64,000 bases of DNA from Actinomycetota bacterium (GCA_039193795.1 JBCCWI010000009.1:1462-65461); one strand, 5' to 3'. Shown: positions 26,318-54,490, counted from the first letter of the stretch. The notes: generated by a model not told the origin, from the letters alone. A program made the numbers and translations.

Positions 26318-27253
26318 TCAGCCGGCGGCGCGCAGCCGTTCGAGCGTGTCGATCATCGTGGCGACGACGAGGTCGACCTTGTAGCCGGTCTCGGGAAGTG
26401 GGTTGGCGCCCTCGGCACAGGCTTCCGCCGCCGCTCGGATCGTCGCATCGTCGAGTGTCTGGCCGGTGAGCACCGCTTCGGCGGCGTCCATGCGCAATGG
26501 CACCGTGGCCACGCCGCCGAGCGCCAGTCGACACTCGGCGATCGTGTCTTCCTCGACGCGCGCCCTCGCCACCGCCTCGACCAGCGGCCACTCCGCCTCG
26601 AACCGAGAGATCGATCGGAAATAGGCGCCCCGCTCCCCCGACCAGCCGCCATCGACGTGCACGGCCGCGATGACCTCGCCGTGAGCGAGCTCGTTGGCCC
26701 GAGATCCGGCCGATCCATCACCCAGGACGGCATCGAGCGTGCGATGTGAGCCATCCGCCATCTCGATGGAGGTGTCGTAGCACCGCAGCGCCATCGCGAT
26801 CGTCGATGGATGCGGGTGCACACAGTCGGAGCGATCGAACACGACGCCGTAGAGGTGGCGACCGGTCCGAGCCGGGCACGCGTCACCCCCGGTCTTGAGG
26901 CAGTCGATGTCGGGGTGGCGGTAGTACCAGCAGCGGGAGTGCTGCGTGAGGTTGCCGGCGATCGTTCCCGTCGCCCGGATCTGGGGTGTGGCCAACGAAC
27001 CGGTCGAGATGGCGAGCGCCGGATGGCTCTCGCGGAGGTCGGCCGCGACGGTCGCCATGCGGGTGCCGCCGCCGATCCGGACGCCGGCGTCAGACCGGTC
27101 GATGCCGGCGAATCCCGCGATGGCGGTGAGGTCGACGATGGTGGGAGCGGCGTTGTGGGAGCGCAGCCGCTCCTGCAGGTCGGTACCGCCCGAGCGCATC
27201 ACAGCGCCCGCGGGCACCTCGATGTCGGCGTAGGAGTCGGGGAAGTGGATCAT
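26318..27253 (-). CDS. Mo-hydroxylase FAD-binding subunit
   Basis: 311 aa from ATG at 27253 (MIHFPDS...), with RSGGTDL and TIAGNL motifs. ATGA overlap with the upstream fused subunit gene. Confidence 0.85.
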   Translation of the reverse strand: MIHFPDSYADIEVPAGAVMRSGGTDLQERLRSHNAAPTIVDLTAIAGFAGIDRSDAGVRIGGGTRMATVAADLRESHPALAISTGSLATPQIRATGTIAGNLTQHSRCWYYRHPDIDCLKTGGDACPARTGRHLYGVVFDRSDCVHPHPSTIAMALRCYDTSIEMADGSHRTLDAVLGDGSAGSRANELAHGEVIAAVHVDGGWSGERGAYFRSISRFEAEWPLVEAVARARVEEDTIAECRLALGGVATVPLRMDAAEAVLTGQTLDDATIRAAAEACAEGANPLPETGYKVDLVVATMIDTLERLRAAG

Positions 27254-29841
27254 CGCAGACCCTCCAGAACGCGATCGGGCCGAATGGGCAGGTGGGTGGG
27301 GCGCCAACCGGTGGCGTTGAAGATGGCGTTGCCGACCGAGGCGGCCGGACTGATCGTGGCGACCTCGCCGAGCCCGACCCCGCCGCCGGGCACGTGTTCC
27401 CAGCCGTCGGTGTGGAAGTGGATGTCGATTTCGGGCGTGTCGCCGAGCTGGGGAATCCGGTAGTCCTCGAGGTTGCAGCTGAGGGTGAGGCCGGTGTGGG
27501 GATCGATCACCTGCTGCTCGTAGAGCGCCAGGCCGACGCCCTGGATGATCGAGCCTTCGCACTGGTTGCGGGCCGTGGCCAGCGAGTGGATTCGCCCGAC
27601 CGAGAGACCGCCGTGCACCGTCAGGACCCGCACCTTGCCGGTGAGCGTGTCGACCTCGACCTCACTGACGTGCAGGGCAGCCGAGAAGCCGCGGCCCACC
27701 CGAAGGCTGGTCGGCATCGTCATCGGCAGACCGCGGCGGTGGTCGGCCGCTCGCTGCACCCGGACGTGGACGCCGTCGTGTTCGGTGCCGGGCTGGCCAC
27801 CGACCTGCTCACGCAGCTTCTCGGCGGCAGCCACCGCCGTCGACCAGATCGACGGTGTCGTGCGAGACCCGCCCGACGCCGGACCGTGGGGGCGGGAGCC
27901 GTCGGCCACACCCATCCGCACGATGACCTCGGACGGGTCGATCTCGAAGACCTCGGCGACCGCCTTCGCCATCAGCGTCTTGGATCCGGTGCCCATGTCC
28001 TGGGTGGCGATGGACACGGCGAGGCGGCCGTCCTCGACCGCGACCTCGACCTCGGTGTTGGGGTCGAGCATGTACATCCAGTTGGCGGCGGCCACGCCGA
28101 CACCACGGCGGAAGCGACCCATGTCGTTCCCCACGGGCCGACGCGACGCCCAGAGGTCGAGCCCCTGGGCCCAGTCGTAGAGCGCCATGCGCTTGGGGTT
28201 GCGGTCGAGGCCGCGGCGGACGTCGATCGGGTCCCGGCCGAGTTGATGGGCCGCTTGGTCGACGGTGCTCTCGAGCGCCCACGCCGCGGTGGGTCCCCCC
28301 GGCCCGCGGAACGGGGCACCGGGCGGGGTGTTGGTGACGACGTCGACGTCGCGGGTCAGTTTCGGCGCCCTGCGGTAGGTGAGCGCAGCGATCATGCCGT
28401 AGACGCCGTTGATACCGGCACCAGCGTGGGCCTCGTCGTCCATGGTCAACGCCTGGTAGGAACCGTCGTCTCCGACGAGCAGGCTGACCTTGCTCGAGCT
28501 GCCAGGCCGGTTGCCGGTCGCGGTCAGCTCCTCTCGACGATCGAGCACCAGGCGGACCGGCCGTCGGGCCGCCTGCGAGAGCTCGATGGCGCCGTGCATG
28601 TCGGGGGTGAGTGCGAGCTTCGCGCCGAAGCCACCACCGACGAAGTCGGCGTTGAGCTCGACCGCGGCGGGGTCGAGCCCGTAGTGCTCGGCGAGTTCCT
28701 CATGGACGAGGTGCACGCCTTGGGTGCTCGTCCACACCCTGAGCTTCGCCGGATCCGACCAGTCGGCGACCGTGCAGTGCGGTTCGAAGGCGGTGTGCAT
28801 CTGCACGCCGGTGCCGAGGTGCAGCTCGGCGAGGCCGGCATCGCCCCGCTCGCGGGCTTTGGCGATGCGCCGCTCCGCGCTGAAGCCGCGGTAGCGCACC
28901 GTGATGGGGCCGCGGACGTTGCCGTTCCAGCGGGCGGGGAACGACGCACCCTCGGCGGCGTTGGGGGCGGCCTTCCTGGAGTCCCTGTCGGGGTAGACCG
29001 CGGGGGCACCCTCGGCCTTGGCCGACTCGGGGTCGGTCACGAATGGCTTCGGCGTCAGCTCGATCGGGAAGTCGGTGGCGAGACGTCGTGCCTCGGCGAG
29101 CGTCTCGGCGGCCACCGCGGCGATCGGCTGACCGGCGTAGACGACCGATCGATGCTCACCGAGGAGATCGACGACGAACGGCGCGGCGTCCATCGGGGTG
29201 GGCCCGACGTCGGCCGCCGCGATCGGCGAGCGCACGATCACCGCGTGGAGGCCGTTCTCGGGAAAGACGTCGGCGGTGTACACCGCTGCGCCGGTGACCT
29301 TGGCCTCGGCGTCGACCCGGGCGCTGGGGCCGGGTTCGTCGTGCTCGCCCCGGCACGCCGCAGCGACCGCCTTGTAGATGCCTTCGTAGGCGCCGCATCG
29401 GCAGAGGTTCCCGGCGAGCGCATCGGCGATGGCGTGGCGGTCGGGTTCGGTGTCGCCGTGCTCGGCCCGCCAGCGGTCCACGAACGCTGCGGCGGCGGTG
29501 ACGAATCCGGGCGTGCAGTAGCCGCACTGGAGACCGTCGTGGGCCATGAACGCCCGTTGGGCGGGGTGGAGGTCGGCGCCGTCGGCGAGGCCTTCGACCG
29601 TCGTGACCTCGGCATCGCGCATCGCCGTGGCCGGCGTGAGACAGCCGACGACCGGCGTCCCGTCGAGCTGCACGGTGCATGCACCGCAGACGCCACCGGC
29701 GCACACCAGCTTCGATCCGGTGAGCCCGAGCTGTTCGCGGATGACGTCGACGGCGGACTCGTGGCCCTCGACCGCGATCGTGCGGGACTCGCCATTGATC
29801 GTCACGGGGATGTCGACCGTCGTGGAGGTGGGGGTCGTCAC
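27250..29841 (-). CDS. Fused [2Fe-2S] small subunit plus molybdopterin large subunit of a xanthine dehydrogenase/aldehyde oxidase family enzyme
   Basis: N-terminal CAGGVCGACTV, CGYCTPGF and NLCRCGAY motifs, followed by the large-subunit domains (GGGFGAK, GAPFRGPGGP). GTG at 29841 is preceded by GGAAGAGG with a 6-nt spacer. Confidence 0.9.
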   Translation of the reverse strand: MTTPTSTTVDIPVTINGESRTIAVEGHESAVDVIREQLGLTGSKLVCAGGVCGACTVQLDGTPVVGCLTPATAMRDAEVTTVEGLADGADLHPAQRAFMAHDGLQCGYCTPGFVTAAAAFVDRWRAEHGDTEPDRHAIADALAGNLCRCGAYEGIYKAVAAACRGEHDEPGPSARVDAEAKVTGAAVYTADVFPENGLHAVIVRSPIAAADVGPTPMDAAPFVVDLLGEHRSVVYAGQPIAAVAAETLAEARRLATDFPIELTPKPFVTDPESAKAEGAPAVYPDRDSRKAAPNAAEGASFPARWNGNVRGPITVRYRGFSAERRIAKARERGDAGLAELHLGTGVQMHTAFEPHCTVADWSDPAKLRVWTSTQGVHLVHEELAEHYGLDPAAVELNADFVGGGFGAKLALTPDMHGAIELSQAARRPVRLVLDRREELTATGNRPGSSSKVSLLVGDDGSYQALTMDDEAHAGAGINGVYGMIAALTYRRAPKLTRDVDVVTNTPPGAPFRGPGGPTAAWALESTVDQAAHQLGRDPIDVRRGLDRNPKRMALYDWAQGLDLWASRRPVGNDMGRFRRGVGVAAANWMYMLDPNTEVEVAVEDGRLAVSIATQDMGTGSKTLMAKAVAEVFEIDPSEVIVRMGVADGSRPHGPASGGSRTTPSIWSTAVAAAEKLREQVGGQPGTEHDGVHVRVQRAADHRRGLPMTMPTSLRVGRGFSAALHVSEVEVDTLTGKVRVLTVHGGLSVGRIHSLATARNQCEGSIIQGVGLALYEQQVIDPHTGLTLSCNLEDYRIPQLGDTPEIDIHFHTDGWEHVPGGGVGLGEVATISPAASVGNAIFNATGWRPTHLPIRPDRVLEGLR

Positions 29842-29871
29842 GTCGTGCCTCTTCCAGAGTGTGCTGCGAAG

Positions 29872-29950
29872 CGGAGGATTTCCTCCGCACAACGATCACC
29901 ATAGTCGGGCGACCGGAGGATTTCCTCCGTTGATCGGAAGTTTTCTTCCG
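29872..29950. promoter_or_regulatory. Three phased 16-bp palindromic operator-like sites in a divergent promoter region
   Basis: CGGAGGATTTCCTCCG at 29872..29887 and again at 29914..29929, plus the degenerate CGGAAGTTTTCTTCCG at 29935..29950. Start-to-start spacing is 42 nt and 21 nt. The sites lie between the Mo-enzyme operon start (29841) and the TetR start (29981). Confidence 0.6.
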
Positions 29951-30530: not shown

Positions 30531-31025
30531 TCAGGCGAAGTCTCCGGCCGAGGACCGCAACTCGAGGATGGCGTCGTCGACCGATCGGCGGCCGGCCCGA
30601 GTCAGCCCCGCCACCCCGAACTCGATCTCGGCCAACGCGACCGCCGCAGCCTCCACTCGGCGCCGGCCCACGGCGGTGAGCACGGCGAGCGTGGTTCGGC
30701 GATCCGTCGGGTGTGCCTTGCGGGCGACGAGCCCGTCCGCCTCGAGTCGGTTGACGGTGTTGGTGACCGAGGCGGGATGCACCTGCAGCCGATCTCCCAC
30801 CTTGCCGAGGGGCAGCTCGCCCTCCCGGGTGAACGACAGAAGCGCCAGCACCTCGAAGCGCGAGAAGTTCAGCCCGAGCGGCGCGAGCGCGGCGTCGATG
30901 CGGCCCGACAGGATCTGATGCGCTCGGGTGATCGAGGTCGCGGCCGTCATCGCATCGACCGCCGACCAGCCGGCCGCCCGCCAGTTGGTGGCGGCCTCGT
31001 CGATCGGGTCGAAGTCCAGCGACAT
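30531..31025 (-). CDS. MarR family transcriptional regulator
   Basis: ATG at 31025 (MSLDFDP...). Winged helix reads LNFSRFEVLALL...GKVGDRLQVHPASVTNTVNRLEADGLVARKAHPTDRR. Confidence 0.85.
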   Translation of the reverse strand: MSLDFDPIDEAATNWRAAGWSAVDAMTAATSITRAHQILSGRIDAALAPLGLNFSRFEVLALLSFTREGELPLGKVGDRLQVHPASVTNTVNRLEADGLVARKAHPTDRRTTLAVLTAVGRRRVEAAAVALAEIEFGVAGLTRAGRRSVDDAILELRSSAGDFA

Positions 31026-31045
31026 CGTGCAGTACCCTAGGGAGA

Positions 31046-31067
31046 AATACTTGGACGTCAAAGTATT
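31046..31067. promoter_or_regulatory. Candidate MarR operator (22-bp near-perfect palindrome)
   Basis: AATACTTGGACGTCAAAGTATT pairs at 10 of 11 positions. It sits in the 55-nt gap between the divergent MarR (31025) and mutase (31081) starts. Confidence 0.45.
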
Positions 31068-31080
31068 CGAGGATCTGCCC

Positions 31081-32709
31081 ATGAGCGACGACCGACAGGC
31101 CTGGCGAGATCAGTACGACGCGACCCGGCTTCGTGACGTGCCCTTCGAGACGATGTCGGGCGTGCCCGTCGACCCGGTCTACGGCGACGATCCGATGCCA
31201 GGCCAGTACCCGTACACCCGCGGTCTCCACGCCGCCGGCTACCGCTCACGCCTCTGGACGATGCGGATGTTCGCCGGCTTCGGTACCGCGGAGGACACCA
31301 ACGCCCGCTTCAAGGAGATCCTCCGCAACGGCGGCATGGGCCTCTCCACCGCCTTCGACATGCCGACGCTCATGGGCTACGACTCCGACTCGCCGTGGGC
31401 GATGGGCGAGGTCGGCCGTGCCGGGGTCGCGGTCGACACGCTGCGCGACATGGAGGACCTCTACGCCGACATCGACCTCGGCACCGTCTCCACCTCGATG
31501 ACGATCAACGGTCCGGCCGCCGCGCTCCTCGCGATGTACATCGCCGTGGGCGAGCAAGGCGGGGTCGCCAAGGCCGACCTGGCCGGGACGATCCAGAACG
31601 ACATCTTGAAGGAGTACCAGGCGCAGAAGGAGTACATCTATCCCCCGCGCCCGAGCATGCGCATCGTCACCGACATGATCCGCTACACCTCGGCCGAGAT
31701 GCCGAAGTGGCACCCGGTCTCGATCTCCGGGTACCACATCCGCGAGGCGGGCTCGACCGCGGCCCAGGAGCTCGCCTTCACCCTCGCCAACGGCTTCGCC
31801 TACGTCGAAGCCGCCCTCGCCGAAGGCCAGGACGTGAACCAGTTCGGTCGTCGCCTGTCGTTCTTCTTCAACGCCCACTCCGACTTCTTCGAAGAGATCG
31901 GCAAGTTCCGTGCCGCCCGCCGCATCTGGGCCCGCTGGATGAAGGAGCGCTACGGCGCCACCGACGAGCGGGCGATGATGTGCCGCTTCCACACTCAGAC
32001 CGCGGGCGTGTCGCTCACCGCCCAGCAGCCCGAGAACAACATCGCCCGCGTCGCGATCCAGGCGCTGTCGGCGGCGCTCGGCGGCACCCAGTCGCTGCAC
32101 ACCGATTCCTTCGACGAGGCACTCGCCCTCCCCACCGAGAAGGCCGCCCGCATCGCCCTACGCACCCAGCAGGTCGTCGCCCACGAGACCGGGGTCACCA
32201 ATGTGGCCGATCCCCTCGGCGGGGCCCCGTACGTCGAGTGGATGACCGACGAGATGGAACGCCAGGCCGAGGCCGTCTTCGCCCACCTCGACCAGCTCGG
32301 CGACGGCTCGATCCTCGAGGGGATCTACGCCGGAATCGAGAACGGCTACTTCGTCGGAGAGATCGCCGACGCCGCCTACCGCTTCGAGCGCGAGGTCAAC
32401 AACGACCGGCGCATCATCGTCGGCGTGAACGGCTACACCGACGGCAATGACGAGGACGAGACCAACCTGTTGCGCATCGACCACACCGTCGAGGAGCTCC
32501 AGCGAAAGCGTCTCGAAGCGGTGAAGCAGGAGCGCGACTCCTCCGCCGTCGATGCGTCGCTCGCCGCCATTCGCACCGCCGCCGAAGATCCGACCGTGAA
32601 CCTGATGCCGCCGATCATCGACGCGGTGAAGACCTACGCCACCGAGGAAGAGATCAGCAACGCGATGCGCGACGTGTTCGGCACCTATGTGGAACAGGCG
32701 ATCGTCTGA
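31081..32709 (+). CDS. B12-dependent acyl-CoA mutase large (substrate-binding) subunit, isobutyryl-CoA-mutase-like signature
   Basis: 542 aa from ATG at 31081, homologous throughout to the MCM catalytic TIM barrel (RLWTMRMFAGFGT, TIQNDILKEYQAQKEYIYPP, SISGYHIREAG). It lacks a B12 domain. Phe64 and Gln182 occupy the MutB Tyr89 and Arg207 positions. Confidence 0.85.
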   Translation: MSDDRQAWRDQYDATRLRDVPFETMSGVPVDPVYGDDPMPGQYPYTRGLHAAGYRSRLWTMRMFAGFGTAEDTNARFKEILRNGGMGLSTAFDMPTLMGYDSDSPWAMGEVGRAGVAVDTLRDMEDLYADIDLGTVSTSMTINGPAAALLAMYIAVGEQGGVAKADLAGTIQNDILKEYQAQKEYIYPPRPSMRIVTDMIRYTSAEMPKWHPVSISGYHIREAGSTAAQELAFTLANGFAYVEAALAEGQDVNQFGRRLSFFFNAHSDFFEEIGKFRAARRIWARWMKERYGATDERAMMCRFHTQTAGVSLTAQQPENNIARVAIQALSAALGGTQSLHTDSFDEALALPTEKAARIALRTQQVVAHETGVTNVADPLGGAPYVEWMTDEMERQAEAVFAHLDQLGDGSILEGIYAGIENGYFVGEIADAAYRFEREVNNDRRIIVGVNGYTDGNDEDETNLLRIDHTVEELQRKRLEAVKQERDSSAVDASLAAIRTAAEDPTVNLMPPIIDAVKTYATEEEISNAMRDVFGTYVEQAIV

Positions 32710-33125
32710 TGCCCGAATCCGACCCCACCGAGGCCGCCCACACCATCCGGGTCGTGCTGGCCAAACTCGGCCTCGACGGTCACGACCGTGGCATCAAGGT
32801 CGTCGCTCGGATCCTGCGCGACGCCGGCATGGAGGTCATCTACCTCGGTCTCCGGCAGACCACGGCGTCGATCGTCGCCGCGGCCGAGGAGGAGGACGCC
32901 GATGCGATCGGCTTGTCGATGCACAACGCCGGCCATCTCGCCCTCGCACCGGCCATGCTCGCCGCGCTCGACGAGGCCGACCTCGACATCCCGTTGATCA
33001 TCGGCGGGATCATCCCCGACGCCGACGTGCCGGTGCTGGAGCAGGCCGGGGTCGCCGCCATCCTCGGCCCGGGCGCGCCGGCCGAAGAGGTCGTCGCCTC
33101 GGTGCGGGCAGCCGTCGACGCGTGA
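32709..33125 (+). CDS. Acyl-CoA mutase small subunit (cobalamin-binding domain)
   Basis: 138 aa with a LGLDGHDRGIKVV (DxHxxG) B12-binding motif. TGATG overlap with the large subunit gene. Confidence 0.9.
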   Translation: MPESDPTEAAHTIRVVLAKLGLDGHDRGIKVVARILRDAGMEVIYLGLRQTTASIVAAAEEEDADAIGLSMHNAGHLALAPAMLAALDEADLDIPLIIGGIIPDADVPVLEQAGVAAILGPGAPAEEVVASVRAAVDA

Positions 33126-33137
33126 GCGACTGACCCC

Positions 33138-34082
33138 GTGAGCGTTCGCAAACTCGAACCCGCCGCACTCGTCGAGCGCGCCCTCACCGGCGATCGACGC
33201 GCCATCGGACGACTGCTCACCCTGATCGAGCGCGGCGGGGCGCCGGCCGACGAGATCACCGAACGCACCCACGCCGAGGCGCGGGGCGGGCACGTGGTGG
33301 GGATCACCGGCGCACCCGGGGCCGGCAAGTCGACCCTGACCGGCCAGCTGATCCGTCACCTCCCCACCCTGGGCCTGAGACCGGCCGTCCTCGCCGTCGA
33401 CCCGTCGTCGCCCCTGACCGGGGGCGCCATCCTCGGCGACCGCGTCCGGATGGACGACGTCGCCGGCGACGGTGGGTTCATCCGGTCGGTCGCGACCCGC
33501 GGTCATGCCGGCGGCCTGGCCCTCTCGGTGCCGGGTTCGGTCCGGGCCTTCGACGCCTGTGGGTTCGACCCGGTCCTGATCGAGACGGTCGGGGTCGGCC
33601 AGGTCGAGGTGGACGTCGCCGGGGCCGCCGACACGACGGTCGTCGTGGTCAACCCCGGCTGGGGTGACGCCGTGCAGGCCAACAAGGCCGGCCTGCTCGA
33701 GGTCGCCGACGTCTTCGTCATCAACAAAGCCGACCGCGACGGCGCCAACGACACCCGTCGCGACCTCGAACTCATGCTCGACCTCAGCCATGTCAGCGGC
33801 CACGAGGACGAGAGCGGTTATCGGCCTCCGATCCTGATGACCACCGCCACCGACGGCGCCGGCGTCGCGGCCATGTGGGACGCGATCGCCGCCCATCGAG
33901 ACCACCTCGACGCGACCGGCGGGCTCAGCGGCCGACGCACGCAGCGCTTCCGCTACGAGGTACGCAACCGCCTCGGCATGCGGATCGACGGGGCGATCGC
34001 CGACGCGACCGCCCGCATCGAGCCCGACGGCCGATCCCCCGCCGCCGTTGCCGCCGAGCTGGCGGGCCGTCTTCTGGCCTGA
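33138..34082 (+). CDS. meaB: Mutase-associated G3E GTPase (MeaB/ArgK family)
   Basis: 314 aa with a GITGAPGAGKST P-loop, ETVGVGQ and INKADRD motifs. Confidence 0.9.
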   Translation: MSVRKLEPAALVERALTGDRRAIGRLLTLIERGGAPADEITERTHAEARGGHVVGITGAPGAGKSTLTGQLIRHLPTLGLRPAVLAVDPSSPLTGGAILGDRVRMDDVAGDGGFIRSVATRGHAGGLALSVPGSVRAFDACGFDPVLIETVGVGQVEVDVAGAADTTVVVVNPGWGDAVQANKAGLLEVADVFVINKADRDGANDTRRDLELMLDLSHVSGHEDESGYRPPILMTTATDGAGVAAMWDAIAAHRDHLDATGGLSGRRTQRFRYEVRNRLGMRIDGAIADATARIEPDGRSPAAVAAELAGRLLA

Positions 34083-36918: not shown

Positions 36919-37883
36919 ACCCGATCGCCCCCCGCCAAACCGGGCCCCACGTCTGGCGCGGGAGGGAGCTGTCCGACACGGACTGGACGTGGCGCCTCGA
37001 GCCGCACGAGATCGCCGAACTCGTCGCAGCCGCGGACCGAGGAACGCGGGACCTGCCGGTCGTCGGGCCTCGGCTCGACGCACTCCGGCAGCGCCTGATC
37101 CGTGGCCGCGGCTTCGAGCTGCTGCGCGGTCTCCCGCTCGACGAGATCGGCCATGACCGGGCCGCCGAGATCCTGCTGTTGATCGGCCGACACCTCGGTT
37201 CGCTGCGGTCACAGAACGCCGCTGGCGACCTGCTCGGCCACGTCCGCAACGTCGGACTCGACGCATCGAATCCCGACGTGCGGATCTATCAGACCGATCA
37301 GCGCCAGACGTTCCACACCGACTCGTCCGACGTCGTCGGGTTGCTGTGCCTGAACGAGGCGGCCGAGGGAGGCGACTCGATGCTGGTGAGCGCCGCGGCG
37401 ATCTACAACGAGATGTTGGACCGCGACCCGTCTCTCGCCCACGCCCTGTTCGCCCCCGTCGCGACCGACCGCCGAGGCGAGGTTCCACCGGGGCAGGATC
37501 CGTTCTTCCTGATCCCGGTGCTCAACTGGTACGACGGCGCACTCACCGTGATCTACCAACGGCAATACATCGAGTCGGCATCGCGCTTCGACGACGCCCC
37601 ACCGCTCTCGGCGACCCAGCGGAGAGCACTCGACCTCTTCGACGAGATCGCCGACGACCCGACGATGCACCTGTCGATGCGACTGCAACCCGGCGACATC
37701 CAGTTCGTGCACAACCACTCGCTGCTGCACGACCGCACCGGGTTCGTCGACGATCCGGCCGCACCCCGCCACCTCCTGCGGCTGTGGTTGTCGATCCCCG
37801 GCGATCGGGAACTGCCGCCGATCTTCGCCAGCCGCTACGGCTCGATCACCGTCGGCGACCGGGGCGGCATCGTCGTCGCGTGA
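36915..37883 (+). CDS. TauD/TfdA family Fe(II)/2-oxoglutarate dioxygenase
   Basis: 322 aa with an FHTDSSD (HxD) motif and a distal His (VHNHSLLHDR). GTGA overlap with the previous gene. Confidence 0.8.
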   Translation: MNPIAPRQTGPHVWRGRELSDTDWTWRLEPHEIAELVAAADRGTRDLPVVGPRLDALRQRLIRGRGFELLRGLPLDEIGHDRAAEILLLIGRHLGSLRSQNAAGDLLGHVRNVGLDASNPDVRIYQTDQRQTFHTDSSDVVGLLCLNEAAEGGDSMLVSAAAIYNEMLDRDPSLAHALFAPVATDRRGEVPPGQDPFFLIPVLNWYDGALTVIYQRQYIESASRFDDAPPLSATQRRALDLFDEIADDPTMHLSMRLQPGDIQFVHNHSLLHDRTGFVDDPAAPRHLLRLWLSIPGDRELPPIFASRYGSITVGDRGGIVVA

Positions 37884-37886
37884 CCG

Positions 37887-38768
37887 CTACGGCTTTCGGG
37901 TGGGCGCGTCGACCGGCTGCACGTACTGCCACCCGAACCGGCCCTTGATGCAGAGCATGCCGTGGGTGATCGAGTGGTCGGCCGGCGACGTGACCTTCAC
38001 GATCGTGTCGTCCTGGGTGTGCAGTTCGAGGTTGCACCCGACCCCGCAGTAGGAACACACCGTCCGGGTGACGTCTTGATCCTCGGGACGCCAGTCGTCG
38101 GCCTCGCGCAGGTCGTACTCGGTCTTGAACTGGATCGCGCCGGTGGGGCACACCCCGATGCAGTTGCCGCAGTACACACAGGCCGAATCGGGAAGGGTGA
38201 CGTCGAACTCGGTGGAGATGCGGGCGTCGAACCCGCGGCCGCTCACCGCGATCGCATAGGTGTGCTGGGCGTCGTCGCCACACGCCTCGACGCACTTGTA
38301 ACAGAGCACGCAGCGGTCGTAGTCGCGGATGTAGAGGTTGTCCTGGATCTTGGGCGCCTCGCCCATGCGCAGCGCCGGCAGTTCGTACTGGTCGTAACGC
38401 TCGGGCTCGGAGCCGTAGTGCGCCATCCACTTCTGCAGCTCGGGCGCCTGGTCGAGGTTGACCCCCGAACCGAGGAACTCGAGCACCATCTTGCGGCTGT
38501 GACGGACACGATCGGAGTCGGTCTCGACGACCATGCCCTCCTCGGCGGGGCGAGCACACGACGGAACCAGCGCACGGCTGCCCTCGACCTCGACCACGCA
38601 CACGCGACAGACGTTGACCGGCGTGAGGTTCTCGGCCCAGCACAGGGTCGGCGTGTCGACACCGGCGGACTCGCACGCCTTGTGGATCGAGGTCCCTTCC
38701 GGCACCTCGACGGCCTGGCCGTCGATGGTCAGGCTGACCCTCACTTCGGACTTCGGGGTCTCGATCAT
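37887..38768 (-). CDS. Formate dehydrogenase Fe-S subunit: NuoG-like N-terminal module ending with the FS0 [4Fe-4S] domain normally fused to the catalytic subunit
   Basis: ATG at 38768 (MIETPKSE...). Carries a 2Fe-2S motif (CWAENLTPVNVCRVC), CVLCYKCVEAC, CVYCGNCIGVCP, then CSYCGVGC...LCIKGRFGW and a stop. Confidence 0.85.
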   Translation of the reverse strand: MIETPKSEVRVSLTIDGQAVEVPEGTSIHKACESAGVDTPTLCWAENLTPVNVCRVCVVEVEGSRALVPSCARPAEEGMVVETDSDRVRHSRKMVLEFLGSGVNLDQAPELQKWMAHYGSEPERYDQYELPALRMGEAPKIQDNLYIRDYDRCVLCYKCVEACGDDAQHTYAIAVSGRGFDARISTEFDVTLPDSACVYCGNCIGVCPTGAIQFKTEYDLREADDWRPEDQDVTRTVCSYCGVGCNLELHTQDDTIVKVTSPADHSITHGMLCIKGRFGWQYVQPVDAPTRKP

Positions 38769-38770
38769 CG

Positions 38771-40537
38771 TCACGATGCGACCCCCGGGACGAGACCGAG
38801 CGAGATGGCGGAGTTGATCGCCGAGGCCGCGGTGTGGCCGAGTCCGCAGATCGAGGCGTCGACCATGACCTGGGAGATGTCGTCGACCAACTGGCGACGT
38901 TCGGGCGTGAGCGAGCCCTTCTGCTGGAGCACAACCATCGTCTCGTTCTGGCGGACCGTCCCGACGCGGCACGGCACGCACTGGCCACAGGACTCGTCGC
39001 GGAAGAACTGCGAAATGCGGACGAGCACGTCGACCATGTCGATCTCGTCGGTGAAGACCATCACGACACCCGAGCCGAGCGTGGTGCCGCGCTCGCGAGC
39101 GTCCTCGAGCGTGATCGGCATGTCGAGGTAGGAGGCGTCGACGAAGGACCCGGCGGCACCGCCCATCAGCACGGCGGCGAGTTCACCCGTGACCCCGCCG
39201 GCGAGTTCCAACACCTCGCCGAGGGTCGTGCCGAATTCGACCTCGTACACGCCCGGCCTCGCGACCCGACCGCTGAGGCACAGCAGCTTCGTGCCCGGCG
39301 ACCGTTCGGTTCCCCGCTCGCGGTAGCCGTCGGCACCCACCAGGACCACGTCGAGCGCGTTGAGCAGCGTCTCGGGGTTGTTGATCGCCGTCGGCTCCTG
39401 GAACAGGCCGTGGGTGGTCGGGAACGGCGGCTTGCTGCGGGGTTCGCCGCGGAACCCCTCGAGCGAAGCGAACAGCGCCGTCTCCTCGCCGCAGATGTAC
39501 GCGCCCGCACCGCGGCGGATCTCGATCTCGAATCGATGACCCGAATCCAGGATGTTCTCGCCGAGCAGCCCCGCTTCACGCGCCTGGTCGATCGCGTTCT
39601 GCAACCGCGCGGTGGCGAGCGGATACTCGCCCCGGATGTAGATCCAGCCGTTCTCGGCGCCGCAGGCGAACCCCGAGACGGTGAGCGCCTCGACGACGGC
39701 GAACGGATCGTTCTCCATCACGACCCGGTCCTTGAACGTGCCGGGCTCGGACTCGTCGCAGTTGGCCACGACGTGCTTGGGCCGGCCCTGTTCGGCGGCG
39801 ACCGCACGCCACTTGATGCCGGTCGGGAACGCAGCACCACCGCGACCCGACAGACCCGAGTCGGCGACCGCCGTGCAGACCGCGTCGGCCCCCATCTTGA
39901 CGGCGGCCTGCAGCGCCGCGTAGCCGCCGTGGGCGCGGTAGGAGTCGAGTGAGGTCGGGTCGACGACGCCGACGCGCTTCAAGAGCCGCAACGAGGGATC
40001 ACCCTGCTGGTGGAACAGCTCGTAGGGCTGATCGTCGGCGTGCACCCGGTCGGGCCCACCGACGCCCTGGACGAACTCGGCGACGGCACCCGTGGTGACG
40101 TCGGCCCGTTCACACTGCCCGAGGCACGGCGATTCGTGGACGTTCGCACCCTGGGCCCGGAGCTCGGCGATGCGGTCGGCGGCTCCGGCGATCTGGCACG
40201 CAGCGTCGACGCAGACATGGGTGACGTCGCCCGCCTGCGCGGGCTCCTCGACCCGGAACAGGTCGTAGAAGGTGGCGACGCCATAGGCCTCCGCCGGAGG
40301 CACCTGCAGTGTTTCGCAGACATAGTTGAGCCCGCCCTCGCTGATCCAGCCCTTGGCGTTCTGGAGCGCGTGGAGGGCGGGCAACAGCAGGTGCCGGTGC
40401 CCGTGCCGCTTCGATGTGCCCGCTCGGATCAGTCGTTCGCTTTCGCGAACGACGACGAACCGGCCACCGAGGGCTGCGTCGACAGCGGCGATTTCGACAT
40501 CGTCAGCCGTCTCCTCGGAGATGTACAGGTCAGCCAT
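38771..40537 (-). CDS. Fused NuoE-like/NuoF-like NAD(H)-binding flavoprotein subunit (FdsG-FdsB type)
   Basis: 588 aa. The NuoE-like part has CVDAAC...CLGQC; the NuoF-like part has GRGGAAFPTG, CDESEPGTFKDR and ESCGQCVPCR. Confidence 0.85.
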   Translation of the reverse strand: MADLYISEETADDVEIAAVDAALGGRFVVVRESERLIRAGTSKRHGHRHLLLPALHALQNAKGWISEGGLNYVCETLQVPPAEAYGVATFYDLFRVEEPAQAGDVTHVCVDAACQIAGAADRIAELRAQGANVHESPCLGQCERADVTTGAVAEFVQGVGGPDRVHADDQPYELFHQQGDPSLRLLKRVGVVDPTSLDSYRAHGGYAALQAAVKMGADAVCTAVADSGLSGRGGAAFPTGIKWRAVAAEQGRPKHVVANCDESEPGTFKDRVVMENDPFAVVEALTVSGFACGAENGWIYIRGEYPLATARLQNAIDQAREAGLLGENILDSGHRFEIEIRRGAGAYICGEETALFASLEGFRGEPRSKPPFPTTHGLFQEPTAINNPETLLNALDVVLVGADGYRERGTERSPGTKLLCLSGRVARPGVYEVEFGTTLGEVLELAGGVTGELAAVLMGGAAGSFVDASYLDMPITLEDARERGTTLGSGVVMVFTDEIDMVDVLVRISQFFRDESCGQCVPCRVGTVRQNETMVVLQQKGSLTPERRQLVDDISQVMVDASICGLGHTAASAINSAISLGLVPGVAS

Positions 40538-40576
40538 TCAGCCTCTGCTCGTTGCGCACCCGGAGGGGGGCGAGGT

Positions 40577-42544
40577 CTACGGGTTGGTCGCCACCACCGG
40601 CGATGCGATCTTGTCCACACGGATCGACGCGGCCTTGAACTCCGCGGTGCCGGAGTCGCGATCCCATTCGTCGTTGGTGATCAGGTTGATGTCGACGAGG
40701 TCCGGGAAGTGGAAGGTCGTGAAGGTGAGGCCCTTGGGGATGTCGGGCTGGATGCGGACCCCCATCTCGACGCTGCCGCGGGGCGACGAGACCCGCACGC
40801 GCTCGCCGTCCTCGATGCCGAGGGCGGCGGCGTCGTCGGGGTTCATGTCGAGTTCGTCGCCGTAGCGGATCGGGTTGTCGAAGCCGCCCGACTGCACGCC
40901 GGTGTTGTAGGAGTCGAGCGACCGACCGGTGGTCAGCCGCAGCGGGAAGTCGGCGCTGAGCTGCTCCTTGGGGCCCTCGTGGTGGGTGATCGAGAACGGC
41001 GACGGCTCGCGTCCGCCGAGGCCCTCCTCCCACAACCAGCCGTGGAGGAACGGCGAACCGGGGTGGTCGAGGTCGGGGCACGGCCACTGCAGACCGCCCT
41101 CCTGCTCGAGCCGCTCGTAGCTCATGCCCGCGTGCATGGGCGACAGCGAACGGAGCTCGTCCCAGAGGTTCTCGGGGGTGGGATCGCCCCAGGAGTCGAC
41201 CCCCATCCGCTTGGCGAGATCGCCGATGATCTCGTGGTCGTGGCGGCACATGCCCGGCGGGGTGACGGCGGGGCGCACTCGCTGGACCCGTCGCTCCGAC
41301 GACGTGACGGTGCCGTCGCACTCGGCCCAACCGACCGACGAGGGGAGCACCACGTCGGCGAGTTCGGCGGTGCCGGTCATGAAGATGTCCTGGACGACGA
41401 GGATGTCGAGATCCTGCAGCAGCGCCCGGGTGTGGCCCGACGCGGCCTCGGAGTCGGCCGGGTTCTCGCCGATGCAGTAGGCGCCCTTGATGATGCCCTC
41501 CTCCATGCCTTCGAGCATGAGGGTCAGGTGGCGGCCGTTCTTGGCGGGGAGGTCCATCCCGTAGGTGGCCTCGAACTTCGCGAGGTGTTCGGGGTTGGTG
41601 ATGTCCTGGAAGCCGGGGAGCTTGTTGGGCAGGGCACCCATGTCGCCGCCGCCCTGCACGTTGTTCTGCCCGCGCAGCGGCACCAGCCCCGATCCCCACT
41701 TGCCGATGTGGCCGGTGAGCAGGGCGAGGTTGCACAGCGATTTCACATTGTCGACACCGTTGTGGTGTTCGGTGATGCCGAGGGTCCAGAGGATCTGCGC
41801 GGTCTCGGCGGTTGCGTAGGCGTGGGCGACCTCTTGGATCGCGTGTGCCGGCACACCGGTGATCTGTTCGGCGTACTCGAGCGTGTACGGCTCGACGTGG
41901 GCCTTGTAGTCCTCGAACCCCTGCGACGAGTGGGCGATGAAGGCCGTGTTGTGGAGGTCGGCGGCGATGATCTCGCGGCCGATGGCGTTGGCCATCGCCA
42001 CGTCGGTGCCGACGTTGAGACCGAGCCAGGCGTCGGCGAACTTGGCCGACGACGTGCGACGAGGGTCGACGGAGTACATCTTCGCCCCGTTGTCGAGCCC
42101 CTTCAGGACGTGGTGGAAGTAGATGGGATGCGCCTCACGGGCGTTGGATCCCCACAGGAGGATGACGTCGGTCTCCTCCACCTCCGTGTAGGAGGAGGTG
42201 CCCCCTCCCGCTCCGAACACTGCCGCCAGACCGACGACGCTGGGAGCGTGTCAAGTTCGATTGCACGAATCGATGTTGTTCGTGCCGAGTGCCATGCGGG
42301 CGAACTTCTGCGCCGCGTAGTTCATCTCGTTGGTGGACTTGGAGCAGCTGAAGACGGCGAACCCCTCGGGCCCGTGCTCGTCCTTGATCTTGGCGAAGCC
42401 CTCCGCGGCGCGGGTCAGGGCCTCGTCCCAGGTGGCTTCGCGCAAGACGCCGTCCTCGCGGACCATCGGCGTCGTCAGGCGGGGCAGCGGGTCGCTGAAC
42501 CGCTTGGCTTTGCGCTTCTTGGCAGAACCGTTCGGGTATCCCAC
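40577..42544 (-). CDS. Formate dehydrogenase catalytic Mo/W-bisPGD subunit, selenocysteine-containing (in-frame UGA at 42251..42253), lacking the FS0 domain
   Basis: ORFs 42251..42646 and 40577..42220 are in one frame, joined across a single TGA. The junction reads GTNNIDSCNRT-U-HAPSVVGLAAVFGAGGGT, compared with E. coli FdhF NNVDCCARV-U-HGPSVAGL. The GTG start at 42544 is tentative. Confidence 0.8.
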
Positions 42545-42666
42545 AGTGCGGAACAGTACCGCATCGTGGAACGATTGAGAATGGCGTGACCGGGTTTTTG
42601 GCTGACGGCTAAGGCGGTGGCCGGCCCGATGACGGCCTGATGACACCGGCGCCGGACACTGCGCCC

Positions 42667-44343
42667 ATGCACCACCGTTCGCGCCGCGCGCGCCACGCCC
42701 TGTCGTTCGTCCTCGCCCTCGGTCTCGGGCTGGCGGTCACCACACCGGTCACCGCGCAGGAGGAGGACGAGGAGGACGCCGTCGACCCGGTGCCGCTGGC
42801 CGACGCGCTCGCCGCCATGGACGACGACGCGCTCGTCATCGTCGACGCGCCACCGGAGGGGTTCCCCACCTACCAGTACGGGGACGACCCGTCCTCGACC
42901 GCCCAGCTCACCGCCGACTACGCGACCATCACCGCTGCGAGCGCGGGCCTGTTCCTGTTCGGCGACGAGATCACGCTCTCCTGTGACGACGCCGAGGTCC
43001 TCTGCTCGAGCCCGGAGGACGCGCCGCTCCCCGATCTCTACCTCGGCATGTCGATGAGGTTCGCCGGCGAAATCCCACTCGACGGAGTCCCCGGCCAGAT
43101 CATCAACTACTCGTTCCCCCATTTCGACCCCTCCGCGGAGCCCTTCGAGGCGCTGCCCCAGTTTCCCGGCGACACCTGGCAGGGCATGAACCGGGTCGCG
43201 GTCGCGGAGTCGCGCTCACCGTTCGCGCTGGCGCCGCAGGTCTTCACGCCCACCGGCGGCTGGCAGACCGGAACGCAGCACACGTTCGGGATCGCGGACG
43301 GCCGCGAGGTCTGGGTGTTCGTCCCCTTCGGCGCGTCTCCGGAGGAGGTCAGCGAGATGGAGACCGCGATCATCACCGCGCTCGCCGAGGAACAGCTCCC
43401 CGAGGGTGCATCGCCCGAGACGCTGCCACAGCGGATCGCAGACTGGATCTCCCGGGGAGGATGGTCCGCGGCGGTGCACGTCCATCAAGGCGACTTCGGG
43501 ATCGAACTCCCCAGCACGATCACGGCGGTGCCGCCGACGCCACGCGGTTCCGACCGCCTCCCCATGCCGACCGAGGTGATCCTGATCGGCTCCGATGGCT
43601 TCGGGTTCCCCGACGATGAACCGCTCGTCCCCGGCCCCGGCGACCCCGCGCCCGACGACGAGACCATCACCATCGACCCGATCGACGAGGACGCCGACCC
43701 ACCCCTCATCGACACGTCCGAGGACGCCGAGACCTCCGCCGACGCGACCGACGACGGTGGCGCGGCCGCAGCCGAGGCGCCGTCGACGGCCGACGGGAAC
43801 GACGACGCAGCGGGCGGCGACGGCGGGGCGCCGACCGGGCTGCTGCTCGGCGGGACCGGTGTGGTGATCGTGGCCGGGGTCGCGCTGGCCGTCGGTCGCC
43901 GACGCAGGGGCGAACTGCAGGAGACCCCGATGGTCAAGCACGTGGACGACGGCGGTGCGGCGGCCGCCGAGGCGGGACTCGTCGTCACCGGCGCGGGTGC
44001 CACCGAACCGGACGGCACACCGATCCACGAGGACGTCGAGTTCGACTACGAGCGCGACGACGGCACCCATGTCGAGGGGTTCGGCACCCGCATGATCGGT
44101 GGCCAGACCACCTACGAGTACGCGGACGGCACCGTGCGCCGTGACCAGGAGGGGCCCCGCGCTCGGACCGTCGAGATCGCCCACCCCGACGGGACCCGCG
44201 AGGTGTGGTCGGGGGTCGAATGGTACGACAGCACCGCCGACGAGTCCTGGCAGCAGGATTCGAGCTACACCCGGTACGACGCGGTCGGCGACATCATCGA
44301 GCAGACCGACACCGACACCCACCCGTGGCCCGAGGACCCGTGA
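42667..44343 (+). CDS. Hypothetical type-I membrane protein (signal peptide, acidic ectodomain, TM, cytoplasmic DGT-repeat tail)
   Basis: MHHRSRRARHALSFVLALGLGLAVTTPVTAQEE signal peptide and a TM helix GLLLGGTGVVIVAGVALAVGRRRRG. ATG at 42640 is an alternative start. Confidence 0.55.
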   Translation: MHHRSRRARHALSFVLALGLGLAVTTPVTAQEEDEEDAVDPVPLADALAAMDDDALVIVDAPPEGFPTYQYGDDPSSTAQLTADYATITAASAGLFLFGDEITLSCDDAEVLCSSPEDAPLPDLYLGMSMRFAGEIPLDGVPGQIINYSFPHFDPSAEPFEALPQFPGDTWQGMNRVAVAESRSPFALAPQVFTPTGGWQTGTQHTFGIADGREVWVFVPFGASPEEVSEMETAIITALAEEQLPEGASPETLPQRIADWISRGGWSAAVHVHQGDFGIELPSTITAVPPTPRGSDRLPMPTEVILIGSDGFGFPDDEPLVPGPGDPAPDDETITIDPIDEDADPPLIDTSEDAETSADATDDGGAAAAEAPSTADGNDDAAGGDGGAPTGLLLGGTGVVIVAGVALAVGRRRRGELQETPMVKHVDDGGAAAAEAGLVVTGAGATEPDGTPIHEDVEFDYERDDGTHVEGFGTRMIGGQTTYEYADGTVRRDQEGPRARTVEIAHPDGTREVWSGVEWYDSTADESWQQDSSYTRYDAVGDIIEQTDTDTHPWPEDP

Positions 44344-44409
44344 CCTGAGCGACCGCGCACGGGCCAACTCCCCCCTCGGTTCGCGCCACAAGCGGTACGG
44401 TTGCCTCCC

Positions 44410-46116
44410 ATGCGCTGGTCGAATCTCCACACCCCCACGCTGCGCGACGCCCCCGCCGATGCGGAGGCCGCGAGCCACAAGCTGTTGATCCGCGGCGGCT
44501 TCATCCGCCAGCTGCACGCCGGCCACTACTCGATGCTGCCGTTGGGCTGGCGGGTCTTCCGCAAGATCGAGCAGATCATCCGCGAGGAGATGGACGCGAT
44601 CGGTGGCCAGGAGTTCCAGCTGCCCACCATGCACCCGGCGTCGCTGTGGCAGAAGTCCGGTCGATGGGAGGTCATGGGCGAGGAGATGTTCCGCGTGACC
44701 GACCGCAAGGGTGCCGAGAACGCGCTCGGCATGACCGAGGAAGAGGTGTTCGCCCATCTCGCGACCGAGATCACGTCCTACAAGGCGCTTCCCCAGATCT
44801 GGTACCAGATGCACACGAAGTTCCGCGACGAACCCCGCCCCAAGAGCGGGCTGCTCCGGGTCCGGGAGTTCACGATGAAGGACGCGTACTCGATGGACCT
44901 CGACCCGGCGGGCCTCGACGTCGCCTTCGACAAGCACCACGCCGCCTACGTCACGATCTTCGACCGGATGGGGCTCCCCGCGGTCCCCGTCGACGCCAGC
45001 TCCGGTGCGATGGGCGGATCGGGCTCGACGGAGTTCATGGTCCCGTCCCCCGCCGGCGAGGACGACGTCGTGATCTGCAAGAACTGCGCCTACGCCGCCA
45101 ACGTCGAACGCGCCACCTCCGCGCTGCCGGAGCTGACCGACCGCGACATCCCCGACCTCGAGCGCTTCCCCACCCCGGGCGTGCGCACGATCAAGGCGCT
45201 CGAAGAGGTCGACGGCGGCGCACCGGCGCAACACCAGATCAAGACGATGGTCATGGTGCTCGACAGCCAGGTCACGCTCGCCCTCGTGCGCGGCGACCAC
45301 CAGCTCAACCTGCAGAAGCTCCAGGACGCCACCGGGGCGATCGAACTCCGGCCGGCGACCCCCGAAGAGGCCAAGGACACCCTGGGCGCCATGCCGGGCT
45401 CGCTCGGCGCGGTCGGAGTGCAGGGTCTGCGGATCATCGCCGACCATGCGCTGCAGGGCCGCAGCGGACTCACGACCGGCGCCAACGAGGACGACTGGCA
45501 CTACACCGGTGTGTCGATCGAGCGCGACATCGCGGTCGACGACTGGGCCGACCTGCGCGAGGTCAGCGCCGGCGAGGCCTGCCCCCGGTGTGGCGTTCCG
45601 ATCGAGATCGTGCGGTGCATCGAAGCCGGGCACATCTTCAAGCTCGGCACCCAGTACAGCGAGGCGATGGGCGCCACCGTGCTCGACCCGGACGGCACCC
45701 AACACCCGATCGTCATGGGCAGCTACGGCATCGGCGTCGAACGGGCGATGGCCACCGTCGTCGAGACGTACCACGACGACGACGGCATCATGTGGCCGGT
45801 CGCCGTCGCGCCCTTCGAAGCGGTCATCACGATCGTGTCGGTCAAGGACGAGTCGTCCGTCGCTGCGGCCGAGGCGCTCTACGCCGACCTCCAGAGCCGA
45901 GGCATCGATGTCCTCCTCGACGACCGCGACGCTCGCGCCGGCGTGAAGTTCGCCGACGCCGAGCTCATCGGCATCCCCCATCGCGTGACGTTCGGGCCCA
46001 AGGCGTTCGCCGAGGGCGAGGTCGAGTACACGCCTCGTGCGACGGGCGAGACCAGCCGGGTGGCGGTCGGGGCCATCGCGGAGCAGGTCGCGGCCGAGAT
46101 CGTCGCCGCTCGCTGA
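44410..46116 (+). CDS. proS: Proline--tRNA ligase (bacterial type with editing insertion)
   Basis: MRWSNLHTPTLRDAPADAEAASHKLLIRGGFIRQ... with class II motifs and a Zn-free C-terminus. Confidence 0.9.
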   Translation: MRWSNLHTPTLRDAPADAEAASHKLLIRGGFIRQLHAGHYSMLPLGWRVFRKIEQIIREEMDAIGGQEFQLPTMHPASLWQKSGRWEVMGEEMFRVTDRKGAENALGMTEEEVFAHLATEITSYKALPQIWYQMHTKFRDEPRPKSGLLRVREFTMKDAYSMDLDPAGLDVAFDKHHAAYVTIFDRMGLPAVPVDASSGAMGGSGSTEFMVPSPAGEDDVVICKNCAYAANVERATSALPELTDRDIPDLERFPTPGVRTIKALEEVDGGAPAQHQIKTMVMVLDSQVTLALVRGDHQLNLQKLQDATGAIELRPATPEEAKDTLGAMPGSLGAVGVQGLRIIADHALQGRSGLTTGANEDDWHYTGVSIERDIAVDDWADLREVSAGEACPRCGVPIEIVRCIEAGHIFKLGTQYSEAMGATVLDPDGTQHPIVMGSYGIGVERAMATVVETYHDDDGIMWPVAVAPFEAVITIVSVKDESSVAAAEALYADLQSRGIDVLLDDRDARAGVKFADAELIGIPHRVTFGPKAFAEGEVEYTPRATGETSRVAVGAIAEQVAAEIVAAR

Positions 46117-54020: not shown

Positions 54021-54021
54021 G

Positions 54022-54423: not shown

Positions 54424-54428
54424 CCCAT

Positions 54429-54439
54429 ATGTTTAACAT
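54429..54439. promoter_or_regulatory. AT-rich palindrome in a divergent promoter (candidate HpaR/MarR site)
   Basis: ATGTT-T-AACAT lies within the unusually AT-rich catatgtttaacatgtgtagtat, between gene starts at 54423 (minus strand) and 54491 (plus strand). Confidence 0.3.
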
Positions 54440-54490
54440 GTGTAGTATCTCCGCGACAACCATCCGGAGCCACGACCACGTTGAGGACGA

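Follow-up and report, generated by a model that had tools for sequence, protein, structure and literature searches.

The iron-sulfur cluster FS0 has been described as ubiquitous beside the molybdenum (Mo) cofactor across Mo-dependent formate dehydrogenases (FDHs) (PMC12176258). In the enzymes of R. capsulatus and C. necator, FdsGBA(D) (6tg9, 6tga and 6vw7), FdsA consists of one chain, FdsG and FdsB are not fused, the gene order is G-B-A(-C-D), and there is an FdsD subunit. The tungsten (W) enzyme of M. extorquens, Fdh1AB or FoDH1 (7e5z and 7vw6), is soluble and NAD-linked and has a NuoE-NuoF fusion as its beta subunit, and its alpha subunit is a single chain of 989-995 aa that begins with a HoxU-like module and continues through FS0 into the Mo domains; a similar beta subunit is paired with an unsplit alpha in a genome paper (PMC5736913). 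Here we describe a three-gene operon at 42544..37887, on the minus strand of a 64,000-nt stretch of DNA from an Actinomycetota bacterium (GCA_039193795.1); the whole stretch analysed is referred to below as the window. The operon specifies the same chain of cofactors as FdsGBA(D), from the bis-pyranopterin guanine dinucleotide (bisPGD) site to flavin mononucleotide (FMN), with the G7 cluster off the path, and its beta and Fe-S parts have the same make-up as in M. extorquens. However, the alpha chain is cut just past FS0 into two proteins, which are encoded by the first and last genes, so that the order is Mo-EF-FeS. Identity to the M. extorquens enzyme is low (125 bits for the Fe-S part and 389 bits for the Mo part).

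Three further systems resemble the present one in part. FdhF (E. coli FDH-H, 1aa6; T. kivui, 7qv7) has the same active site of selenocysteine (Sec) or Cys, His and Arg and the same FS0 lysine (Lys44), but the Mo protein described here begins at the equivalent of FdhF residue 59 or so, and FS0 is instead fused to a HoxU-like protein. In the enzyme of Methanothermobacter wolfeii, which we take to be formylmethanofuran dehydrogenase (Fwd/Fmd) with FwdD as its extra subunit, the Mo/W-bisPGD catalytic unit likewise consists of two polypeptides, FwdB and FwdD; that split, however, takes off the C-terminal cap domain IV and leaves FS0 in place, whereas here the N-terminal FS0 is taken off. The C terminus of the FdsA homologue has been reported as replaced by an additional subunit in that organism (PMC7171172). 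In HylABC-FdhF2, HydABC and HoxU, as here, a separate NuoG/HoxU-like Fe-S subunit bridges a NuoF-type flavoprotein and the catalytic subunit, but that Fe-S subunit lacks FS0, the FDH keeps its own FS0, and HylB and HydB carry ferredoxin domains for bifurcation.

Organization of the three-gene operon

The principal elements are given below with the evidence that identifies each of them.

40577..42544, minus strand: Mo subunit, catalytic Mo/W-bisPGD selenoprotein of 655 aa (Pfam, TIGR01591 and solved-chain alignments)
38771..40537, minus strand: EF fusion, NuoE-NuoF flavoprotein of 588 aa (Pfam domains and 7e5z_B alignment)
37887..38768, minus strand: Fe-S subunit, HoxU-like module followed by FS0, 293 aa (Pfam and FdsA alignment)
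37917..38072, minus strand: FS0 domain (Molybdop_Fe4S4, residues 233-284 of the Fe-S subunit; TIGR01591 positions 1-51)
42251..42253, minus strand: in-frame UGA as Sec98 (TGA in 60/62 homologous loci)
42210..42247, minus strand: selenocysteine insertion sequence (SECIS) hairpin, beginning 6 nt past the UGA (covariation across 59 distinct sequences)

A sequence-only reading of this DNA had proposed an FDH with its catalytic polypeptide in two pieces, the C-terminal piece encoded first, the N-terminal piece last and a fused E-F protein between them. The open reading frames (ORFs) and Pfam domains place the three genes at the coordinates that it had given, and in that order. Only 2 nt separate the EF stop from the Fe-S start, and 39 nt the Mo stop from the EF start. 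The mechanical ORF of the Fe-S gene opens at GTG 38981 and overlaps the EF end by about 210 nt, but the N termini of homologues and the TGAcgATG junction indicate ATG 38768 as its true start; GTG 42544 is the likely start codon of the Mo gene, judging from the short, basic N termini of the homologues. Paralogues of the Mo, EF or Fe-S genes were found nowhere else in the window, and a scan of 37600-42900 for promoter and terminator consensus sequences gave no match. The window has a G+C content of about 70%, and its closest relatives are labelled Acidimicrobiales.

Position of the break in the alpha chain

The Mo protein matches Molybdopterin (PF00384) at residues 22-446 (E = 2.6e-70) and Molydop_binding (PF01568) at residues 535-638, and it is the counterpart of domains II-IV, the bisPGD-binding part, of the FDH alpha subunit; Molybdop_Fe4S4 (PF04879), or any FS0 motif, is absent from it in the Pfam scan. 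Its active-site residues are Sec98 and His99 (DSCNRT-U-HAPS) and Arg291 (PLRGQNNVQG). The Sec-His dyad and the arginine of RGQNNVQG are signatures of formate dehydrogenases. Conservation of the active-site His and Arg in FDH has been documented (PMC7171172).

The NCBIfam Fdh-alpha profile, TIGR01591, is partitioned between the two proteins, positions 1-51 lying on the Fe-S protein and positions 51-672 on the Mo protein, which bears out the proposal that the cut falls exactly at the junction of the FS0 and Mo domains. The scores are 633.8 bits for the Mo protein and 52.3 bits for the Fe-S protein; the curated cut-off of 666.25 is passed by the summed scores and by neither chain singly, and the Mo protein falls short because 50 positions of the profile lie on the Fe-S protein. 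R. capsulatus FdsA, which among solved structures matches the Fe-S subunit best (159 bits), aligns with that subunit over residues 17-306 and with the Mo protein over residues 295-932. The two alignments overlap at residues 295-306, and therefore nothing has been lost at the junction. The solved chains closest to the Mo body are FdhF of the T. kivui hydrogen-dependent CO2 reductase (HDCR) (7qv7_S, 511 bits) and E. coli FdhF (1aa6_A, 449 bits). Among homologues, the Mo protein begins with a short, basic N terminus having few residues ahead of a conserved RLTxPLVR, and none carries the FS0 motif; no twin-arginine signal was seen there on inspection by eye.

Cofactor sites

The EF protein contains the Pfam domains 2Fe-2S_thioredx, Complex1_51K, SLBB and NADH_4Fe-4S, with NAD(H)-binding GRGGA at 231 and FMN-binding GAGAYICGEE at 343, and the M. 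extorquens beta subunit (7e5z_B) aligns with it over residues 44-578. In the Fe-S subunit, Fer2_4 (10-85) is followed by two ferredoxin CxxCxxCxxxC motifs and Molybdop_Fe4S4 (233-284), and the protein terminates 9 residues past the last of these. The cluster ligands, named after their R. capsulatus equivalents, are as follows.

C109, C114, C138 and C142 of the EF fusion: G7 equivalent, [2Fe-2S]
C517, C520, C523 and C564 of the EF fusion: B6 equivalent, N3-type [4Fe-4S]
C43, C54, C57 and C71 of the Fe-S subunit: A5 equivalent, [2Fe-2S]
C153/156/159/163 and C197/200/203/207 of the Fe-S subunit: A2 and A3 equivalents, ferredoxin-type [4Fe-4S]
C238, C241, C245 and C273 of the Fe-S subunit: A1 (FS0)

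In R. capsulatus FDH, electrons pass from bisPGD to A1 (FS0), A2, A3, the A5 [2Fe-2S] cluster, B6 and FMN, and two clusters are off this path, namely G7, and A4 (His117/Cys121/124/130) at the dimer interface (PMC7171172). The His-ligated A4, one of the five Fe-S clusters of FdsA, has no counterpart in the split family: its motif, HxxxCxxCx5C, is absent from 82/82 Fe-S proteins, and the stretch from C71 to C153 of the present protein is free of any further cysteine. All on-path ligands are kept and those of A4 are missing, and therefore only the off-path cluster of the dimer interface has been lost.

The lysine associated with FS0 is Lys275 (CxKG) of the Fe-S subunit, and CIKG or CVKG occurs in 82/82 Fe-S proteins. 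In E. coli FDH-H the corresponding Lys44 sits between FS0 and the pterin, across an edge-to-edge gap of 6.1 A; K44R is the only active variant (7.1%), and substitutions destabilise both cofactors (PMC12176258). Because both FS0 and this lysine are on the Fe-S protein, they must reach the pterin across a subunit interface, as the sequence-only reading had concluded for FS0.

Selenocysteine and the SECIS hairpin

DSCNRT[U/C]HAPS is invariant in the 62 readable loci, and in 60 of them the active-site codon is TGA, a further difference from the M. extorquens enzyme. The window hairpin consists of a lower stem (GCUCC/GGAGC), an upper stem (GUCGUC/GGCGGC) and the apical loop GGUCU; in the family, the upper stem reads GUCGUC/GRCGAC and the GGUCU loop that it closes does not vary. 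This loop resembles the apical loop of the E. coli fdhF SECIS. Over 59 distinct sequences, 99.4% of cells in the upper helix are paired and two compensatory CG-to-GC changes occur, and pairing of the whole hairpin is 88.9%, compared with 33-60% when the partners are slid. Sec decoding is thus supported, because the TGA is accompanied by a conserved hairpin. An Rfam scan around the UGA returned no SECIS family and only a chance sRNA match (E = 0.19).

The two remaining loci, from Streptomyces cavernae and S. longisporus (L075:3203-5107 and L081:3190-5115), have TGT or TGC at this codon, and their GGUCU loop is degraded, which looks like replacement of Sec by Cys within the split family. The metal ligand of FdsA is likewise Cys (Cys386; PMC7171172).

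Distribution and synteny

A census of one genome per GTDB species yielded at least 599 pattern matches and at least 597 confirmed relatives, of which the best 80 were examined. A protein search with the Fe-S subunit gave 8000 matches at E ≤ 1e-20; in the best 120 clusters nearly all proteins are of 274-312 aa (one is of 392 aa), and all have PF04879 and lack PF00384 and PF01568. The Fe-S gene stops 0-40 codons past FS0 in 80/82 loci. Where upstream DNA was available, the Mo gene lies directly upstream of EF on the same strand, in the order Mo-EF-FeS, in 69 of 71 loci; these 69 carry labels of more than 10 phyla, and their intergenic gaps are short or the genes overlap. The actinomycetotal labels are Acidimicrobiia, Streptomyces, Pseudonocardia, Actinomycetospora, Gaiellales and Thermoleophilia, and those of Acidobacteriota are Bryobacterales, Terriglobia, Vicinamibacteria and Thermoanaerobaculia; Eremiobacterota, Chloroflexota, Gemmatimonadota, Planctomycetota, Verrucomicrobiota and Bacillota are also represented. 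In the plasmid database only unsplit FdsA-type genes were found (about 37% identity), with no sign of a plasmid-borne cassette.

Locus L001, on a 3.3-Mb contig of the closest relative with a complete chromosome, has a gene for prolyl-tRNA synthetase (ProRS), a Mo gene called as two fragments (94 + 540 aa), EF (589 aa) and FeS (297 aa). Its Mo-EF gap is 356 nt, against 39 nt here, and contains at L001:6002-6230 two tandem copies of the last 36 or so Mo codons (query residues 611-646, 77% identity each). In two Chloroflexota loci (L039:4289-4786 and L066:4517-4948) an extra conserved ORF of 143-165 aa, including CSGCGL...DGCQGVFDDESAREY, stands between Mo and EF, and L039 has an apparent PIN-type toxin gene there as well (3507-3893, minus strand). 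The most divergent split Fe-S member found, P0123 (48% identity), has the same gene order. At its locus (L086:1599-3170) Mo aligns over residues 11-511 only and then runs directly into EF; it seems to be without the C-terminal cap domain (about 140 aa), owing perhaps to another split or to a mistake in a short contig of a metagenome-assembled genome (MAG).

Genes that often adjoin the cassette in other genomes, named by eye from sequence, are those for FdhD (15 loci), a MobA-like protein (21 loci), formate-tetrahydrofolate (THF) ligase (5 loci) and a major-facilitator transporter (4 loci), the last of which looks, by eye, like an oxalate/formate antiporter. FdhD is the FDH-specific sulfurtransferase, and neighbours of these kinds are consistent with an FDH that requires a sulfurated bis-MGD (MGD, molybdopterin guanine dinucleotide) cofactor. 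No small ORF like fdsD recurs beside the cassette among the clustered flanking ORFs of at least 80 aa, measured from stop to stop, a size limit that the 71-aa FdsD could escape.

The sequence-only reading had left it as a question whether this arrangement is common and already characterised. It is common, as the census indicates, but we found no account of an FS0 split in the open-access literature and preprints, including broad MopB and FDH papers, no protein of the 293-aa type as a separate subunit of a solved structure among Protein Data Bank (PDB) chains, and no NCBIfam model that is dedicated to the split or whose cut-off is attained by one of the three proteins. In databases the Fe-S protein has names that are generic or misleading, namely HndD, YjgC or '2Fe-2S cluster-binding protein'. 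A Sulfobacillus genome paper reports Sec-FDH catalytic subunits syntenic with NuoEFG homologues and does not discuss FS0 (PMC4378227); that cassette may be of the split type. A paper on mycobacterial selenoproteins, in which the FDH is annotated fdhA/fdoG, makes no mention of NADH, NuoF, 2Fe-2S or a split. Thus, the variant is real and widespread and appears to be uncharacterised. The novelty that had been claimed for the whole architecture applies to the FS0 split, which apparently has not been described, but not to the E-F fusion, which is known from M. extorquens Fdh1B.

Phylogeny and proposed origin of the split

Neighbour-joining distance trees, made without bootstrap from 61 split members and 14 unsplit enzymes for the FeS and Mo parts, show the split family as monophyletic in both parts among the sampled sequences. 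Members of the family share at least 56-58% identity with one another, compared with at most 43-45% with the sampled unsplit enzymes; the high identity across phyla suggests that the cassette may have spread horizontally. Its sister group in the FeS tree (P0212/P0248) comprises unsplit alphas that likewise lack A4. The P0212 operon encodes, in this order, E (103 aa), F (375 aa) and alpha (904 aa), and the P0270 gene likewise lies downstream of its flavoprotein gene.

Read around a circle, the order Mo-EF-FeS and the canonical E-F-[FeS+Mo] are the same, one being a rotation of the other. From this gene order, we suggest that an ancestral E-F-alpha operon may have been duplicated in tandem and then trimmed at both ends, as far as the first Mo part on the upstream side and the second FS0 on the downstream side, which could have given rise to the split and the permuted order at once. 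E and F would have been fused in a separate event.

Proposed function and alternative interpretations

The three genes most probably encode one soluble, cytoplasmic, NAD(P)+-linked Mo/W selenoprotein formate dehydrogenase composed of three polypeptides. We infer the single complex, the NAD specificity, the metal and the direction of the reaction from the sequences, and the specificity in particular from motifs; the 'NAD-type' label of the sequence-only reading agrees with these motifs and depends on them. The enzyme is probably cytoplasmic and non-bifurcating. The 655-aa subunit would oxidise formate at its metal-bisPGD site (Sec98/His99/Arg291), and electrons would exit through FS0, in the last 60 or so residues of the separate 293-aa Fe-S subunit, whose FS0 domain would dock on the Mo subunit at the place where domain I is covalently attached in FdhF and FdsA. 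The lysine between FS0 and the pterin would be supplied in trans by the Fe-S subunit. From FS0 the electrons would continue within the Fe-S subunit, through its two [4Fe-4S] clusters of the ferredoxin type and its [2Fe-2S] cluster (equivalents of A2, A3 and A5), into the NuoF half, where they would reach a [4Fe-4S] cluster and FMN and reduce NAD+; the [2Fe-2S] cluster of the NuoE half would lie off this path.

Several observations weigh against this interpretation or against parts of it. In two loci on MAG contigs, L045 (labelled Chloroflexi) and L058 (labelled Planctomycetota), EF-FeS has no Mo gene within 3.6-5 kb upstream, nor within 2 kb (L045) or 7 kb (L058) downstream of FeS; a distant Mo gene and chimeric contigs are both possible explanations, and physical linkage of the cassette is not absolute. 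The phylum labels are the titles of MAG records, a few of which are apparently misbinned. Neither NAD versus NADP nor Mo versus W can be read from sequence. The window lacks a tRNA or tRNA-Sec gene (ARAGORN), and no selA/B/D gene occurs among its scanned ORFs (27-64 kb). By tblastn, the window also gave no match to FdhD, MobA, formate-THF ligase or the transporter. An AlphaFold2 model of the Fe-S subunit alone, built with 50 close homologues, was unusably poor, with a mean predicted local distance difference test (pLDDT) value of 53 and a predicted template modelling (pTM) score of 0.49. As for origin, the proposed rotation is deduced from gene order.

Among the alternatives, it is unlikely that the three proteins form one complex which physiologically reduces CO2, uses NADPH, or bifurcates electrons with ferredoxin. 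Catalysis by metal-dependent FDHs can run in both directions, the Mo body most resembles the CO2-reducing HDCR FdhF, the NuoF part scores similarly against the bifurcating HydB/NfnB chains and against FdsB, and the cassette adjoins formate-THF ligase in some genomes, as noted above. However, the Pfam scan of the EF protein detected none of the extra C-terminal ferredoxin domains of the HydB/HylB type (in contrast to locus L085), most of the host lineages that the records name are aerobic heterotrophs of soil or the sea, and there is no sign of the Wood-Ljungdahl pathway among the ORFs scanned (27-64 kb of the window).

We consider it very improbable that the genes are neighbours without encoding one enzyme, the EF and Fe-S proteins constituting a free-standing diaphorase- or hydrogenase-like module and the Mo protein having some other partner, in spite of the two loci without an adjacent Mo gene and of database names such as HndD and YjgC. 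No role is known for an FS0 domain other than in association with a Mo-bisPGD or NuoG-type body. Moreover, the profile is partitioned exactly with nothing lost, synteny is near-universal, the genes are apparently translationally coupled, and the same clade is recovered in the Fe-S and Mo trees. Still less likely is a non-formate substrate for the Mo subunit, such as nitrate as in NasC/NarB. The next family after TIGR01591 to match the Mo protein is NasC (412 bits), the NasA model also matches (344 bits), and its Fdh-alpha score lies slightly below the curated cut-off; but that shortfall is explained by the 50 positions on the Fe-S protein, and the Sec-His dyad, the RGQNNVQG arginine and the recurrent neighbour FdhD all point to formate. 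Finally, an assembly error, an inversion at the junctions or a decaying pseudogene in this genome alone, as might be imagined from the two fragments that gene callers report at an in-frame TGA and from a visibly frameshifted related contig (L002), has a negligible probability and was rejected, because the same gene order recurs in 69 of the 71 informative loci, on independent contigs that include closed and multi-megabase chromosomes, and because the cofactor ligands are all conserved, family identity is at least 56% and the TGA comes with its conserved hairpin.

Within the interpretation of a three-polypeptide formate dehydrogenase, a more speculative proposal, and a rather doubtful one, is that the split is functional and not a neutral fission. 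With FS0 and its lysine on a different chain, the Mo subunit would then be loaded with its sulfurated bisPGD cofactor without FS0 on its own chain and become electron-competent only once docked to FeS-EF, so that docking might serve as an assembly-gated switch or quality control, possibly shielding an O2-sensitive selenoenzyme in aerobes, and the cassette would have spread horizontally to many phyla by virtue of being a self-contained module.

Genomic context in the window

The operon is flanked by genes for a TauD-family dioxygenase, an FMN-dependent dehydrogenase, ProRS and other unrelated proteins. Methylmalonyl-CoA mutase and MeaB are encoded on one side (30919-34079, plus strand) and ProRS on the other (44401-46116, plus strand); the same genes also flank the L001 operon, and the wider neighbourhood is therefore conserved among these Acidimicrobiales. 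Divergent from the operon, at 42640-44343 (plus strand), is a gene for a 567-aa acidic, proline-rich protein with no Pfam match, which has an N-terminal hydrophobic segment and an internal membrane-like segment. An unrelated molybdoenzyme is encoded at 27253-29895 (minus strand), an 881-aa protein of the xanthine-dehydrogenase family with fused Fer2 and Fer2_2 [2Fe-2S] domains and MoCoBD, and genes for TetR and MarR regulators adjoin it. A cluster at 52494-55393, which encodes an aldehyde dehydrogenase, 5-carboxymethyl-2-hydroxymuconate isomerase and a fumarylacetoacetate-hydrolase-family protein, looks like a homoprotocatechuate-type module for the degradation of aromatic compounds.

Significance

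FS0 acts as the first electron relay. Its insertion has been reported as a prerequisite for insertion of the Mo cofactor (Moco) in NarG and DmsA (PMC5123574). The split family is a natural system in which to ask whether the metal site matures and stays stable without a covalently attached FS0 domain, and how a cofactor gap of about 6 A is held across a subunit interface, and its composite catalytic unit raises a concrete question about the order of maturation. Carriers are common in genomes and MAGs labelled soil, marine and wastewater, including Acidimicrobiia, Acidobacteriota, Streptomyces and Pseudonocardia. With generic annotation of the proteins and a Mo gene interrupted at the UGA, the family will probably be overlooked or wrongly classified when formate oxidation and selenium use are surveyed. 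The Streptomyces cassettes with Cys offer a version that is expressible without the selenocysteine machinery, and the operon as a whole is a case in which one event of duplication and trimming could explain both the fission of a gene and a permuted gene order.

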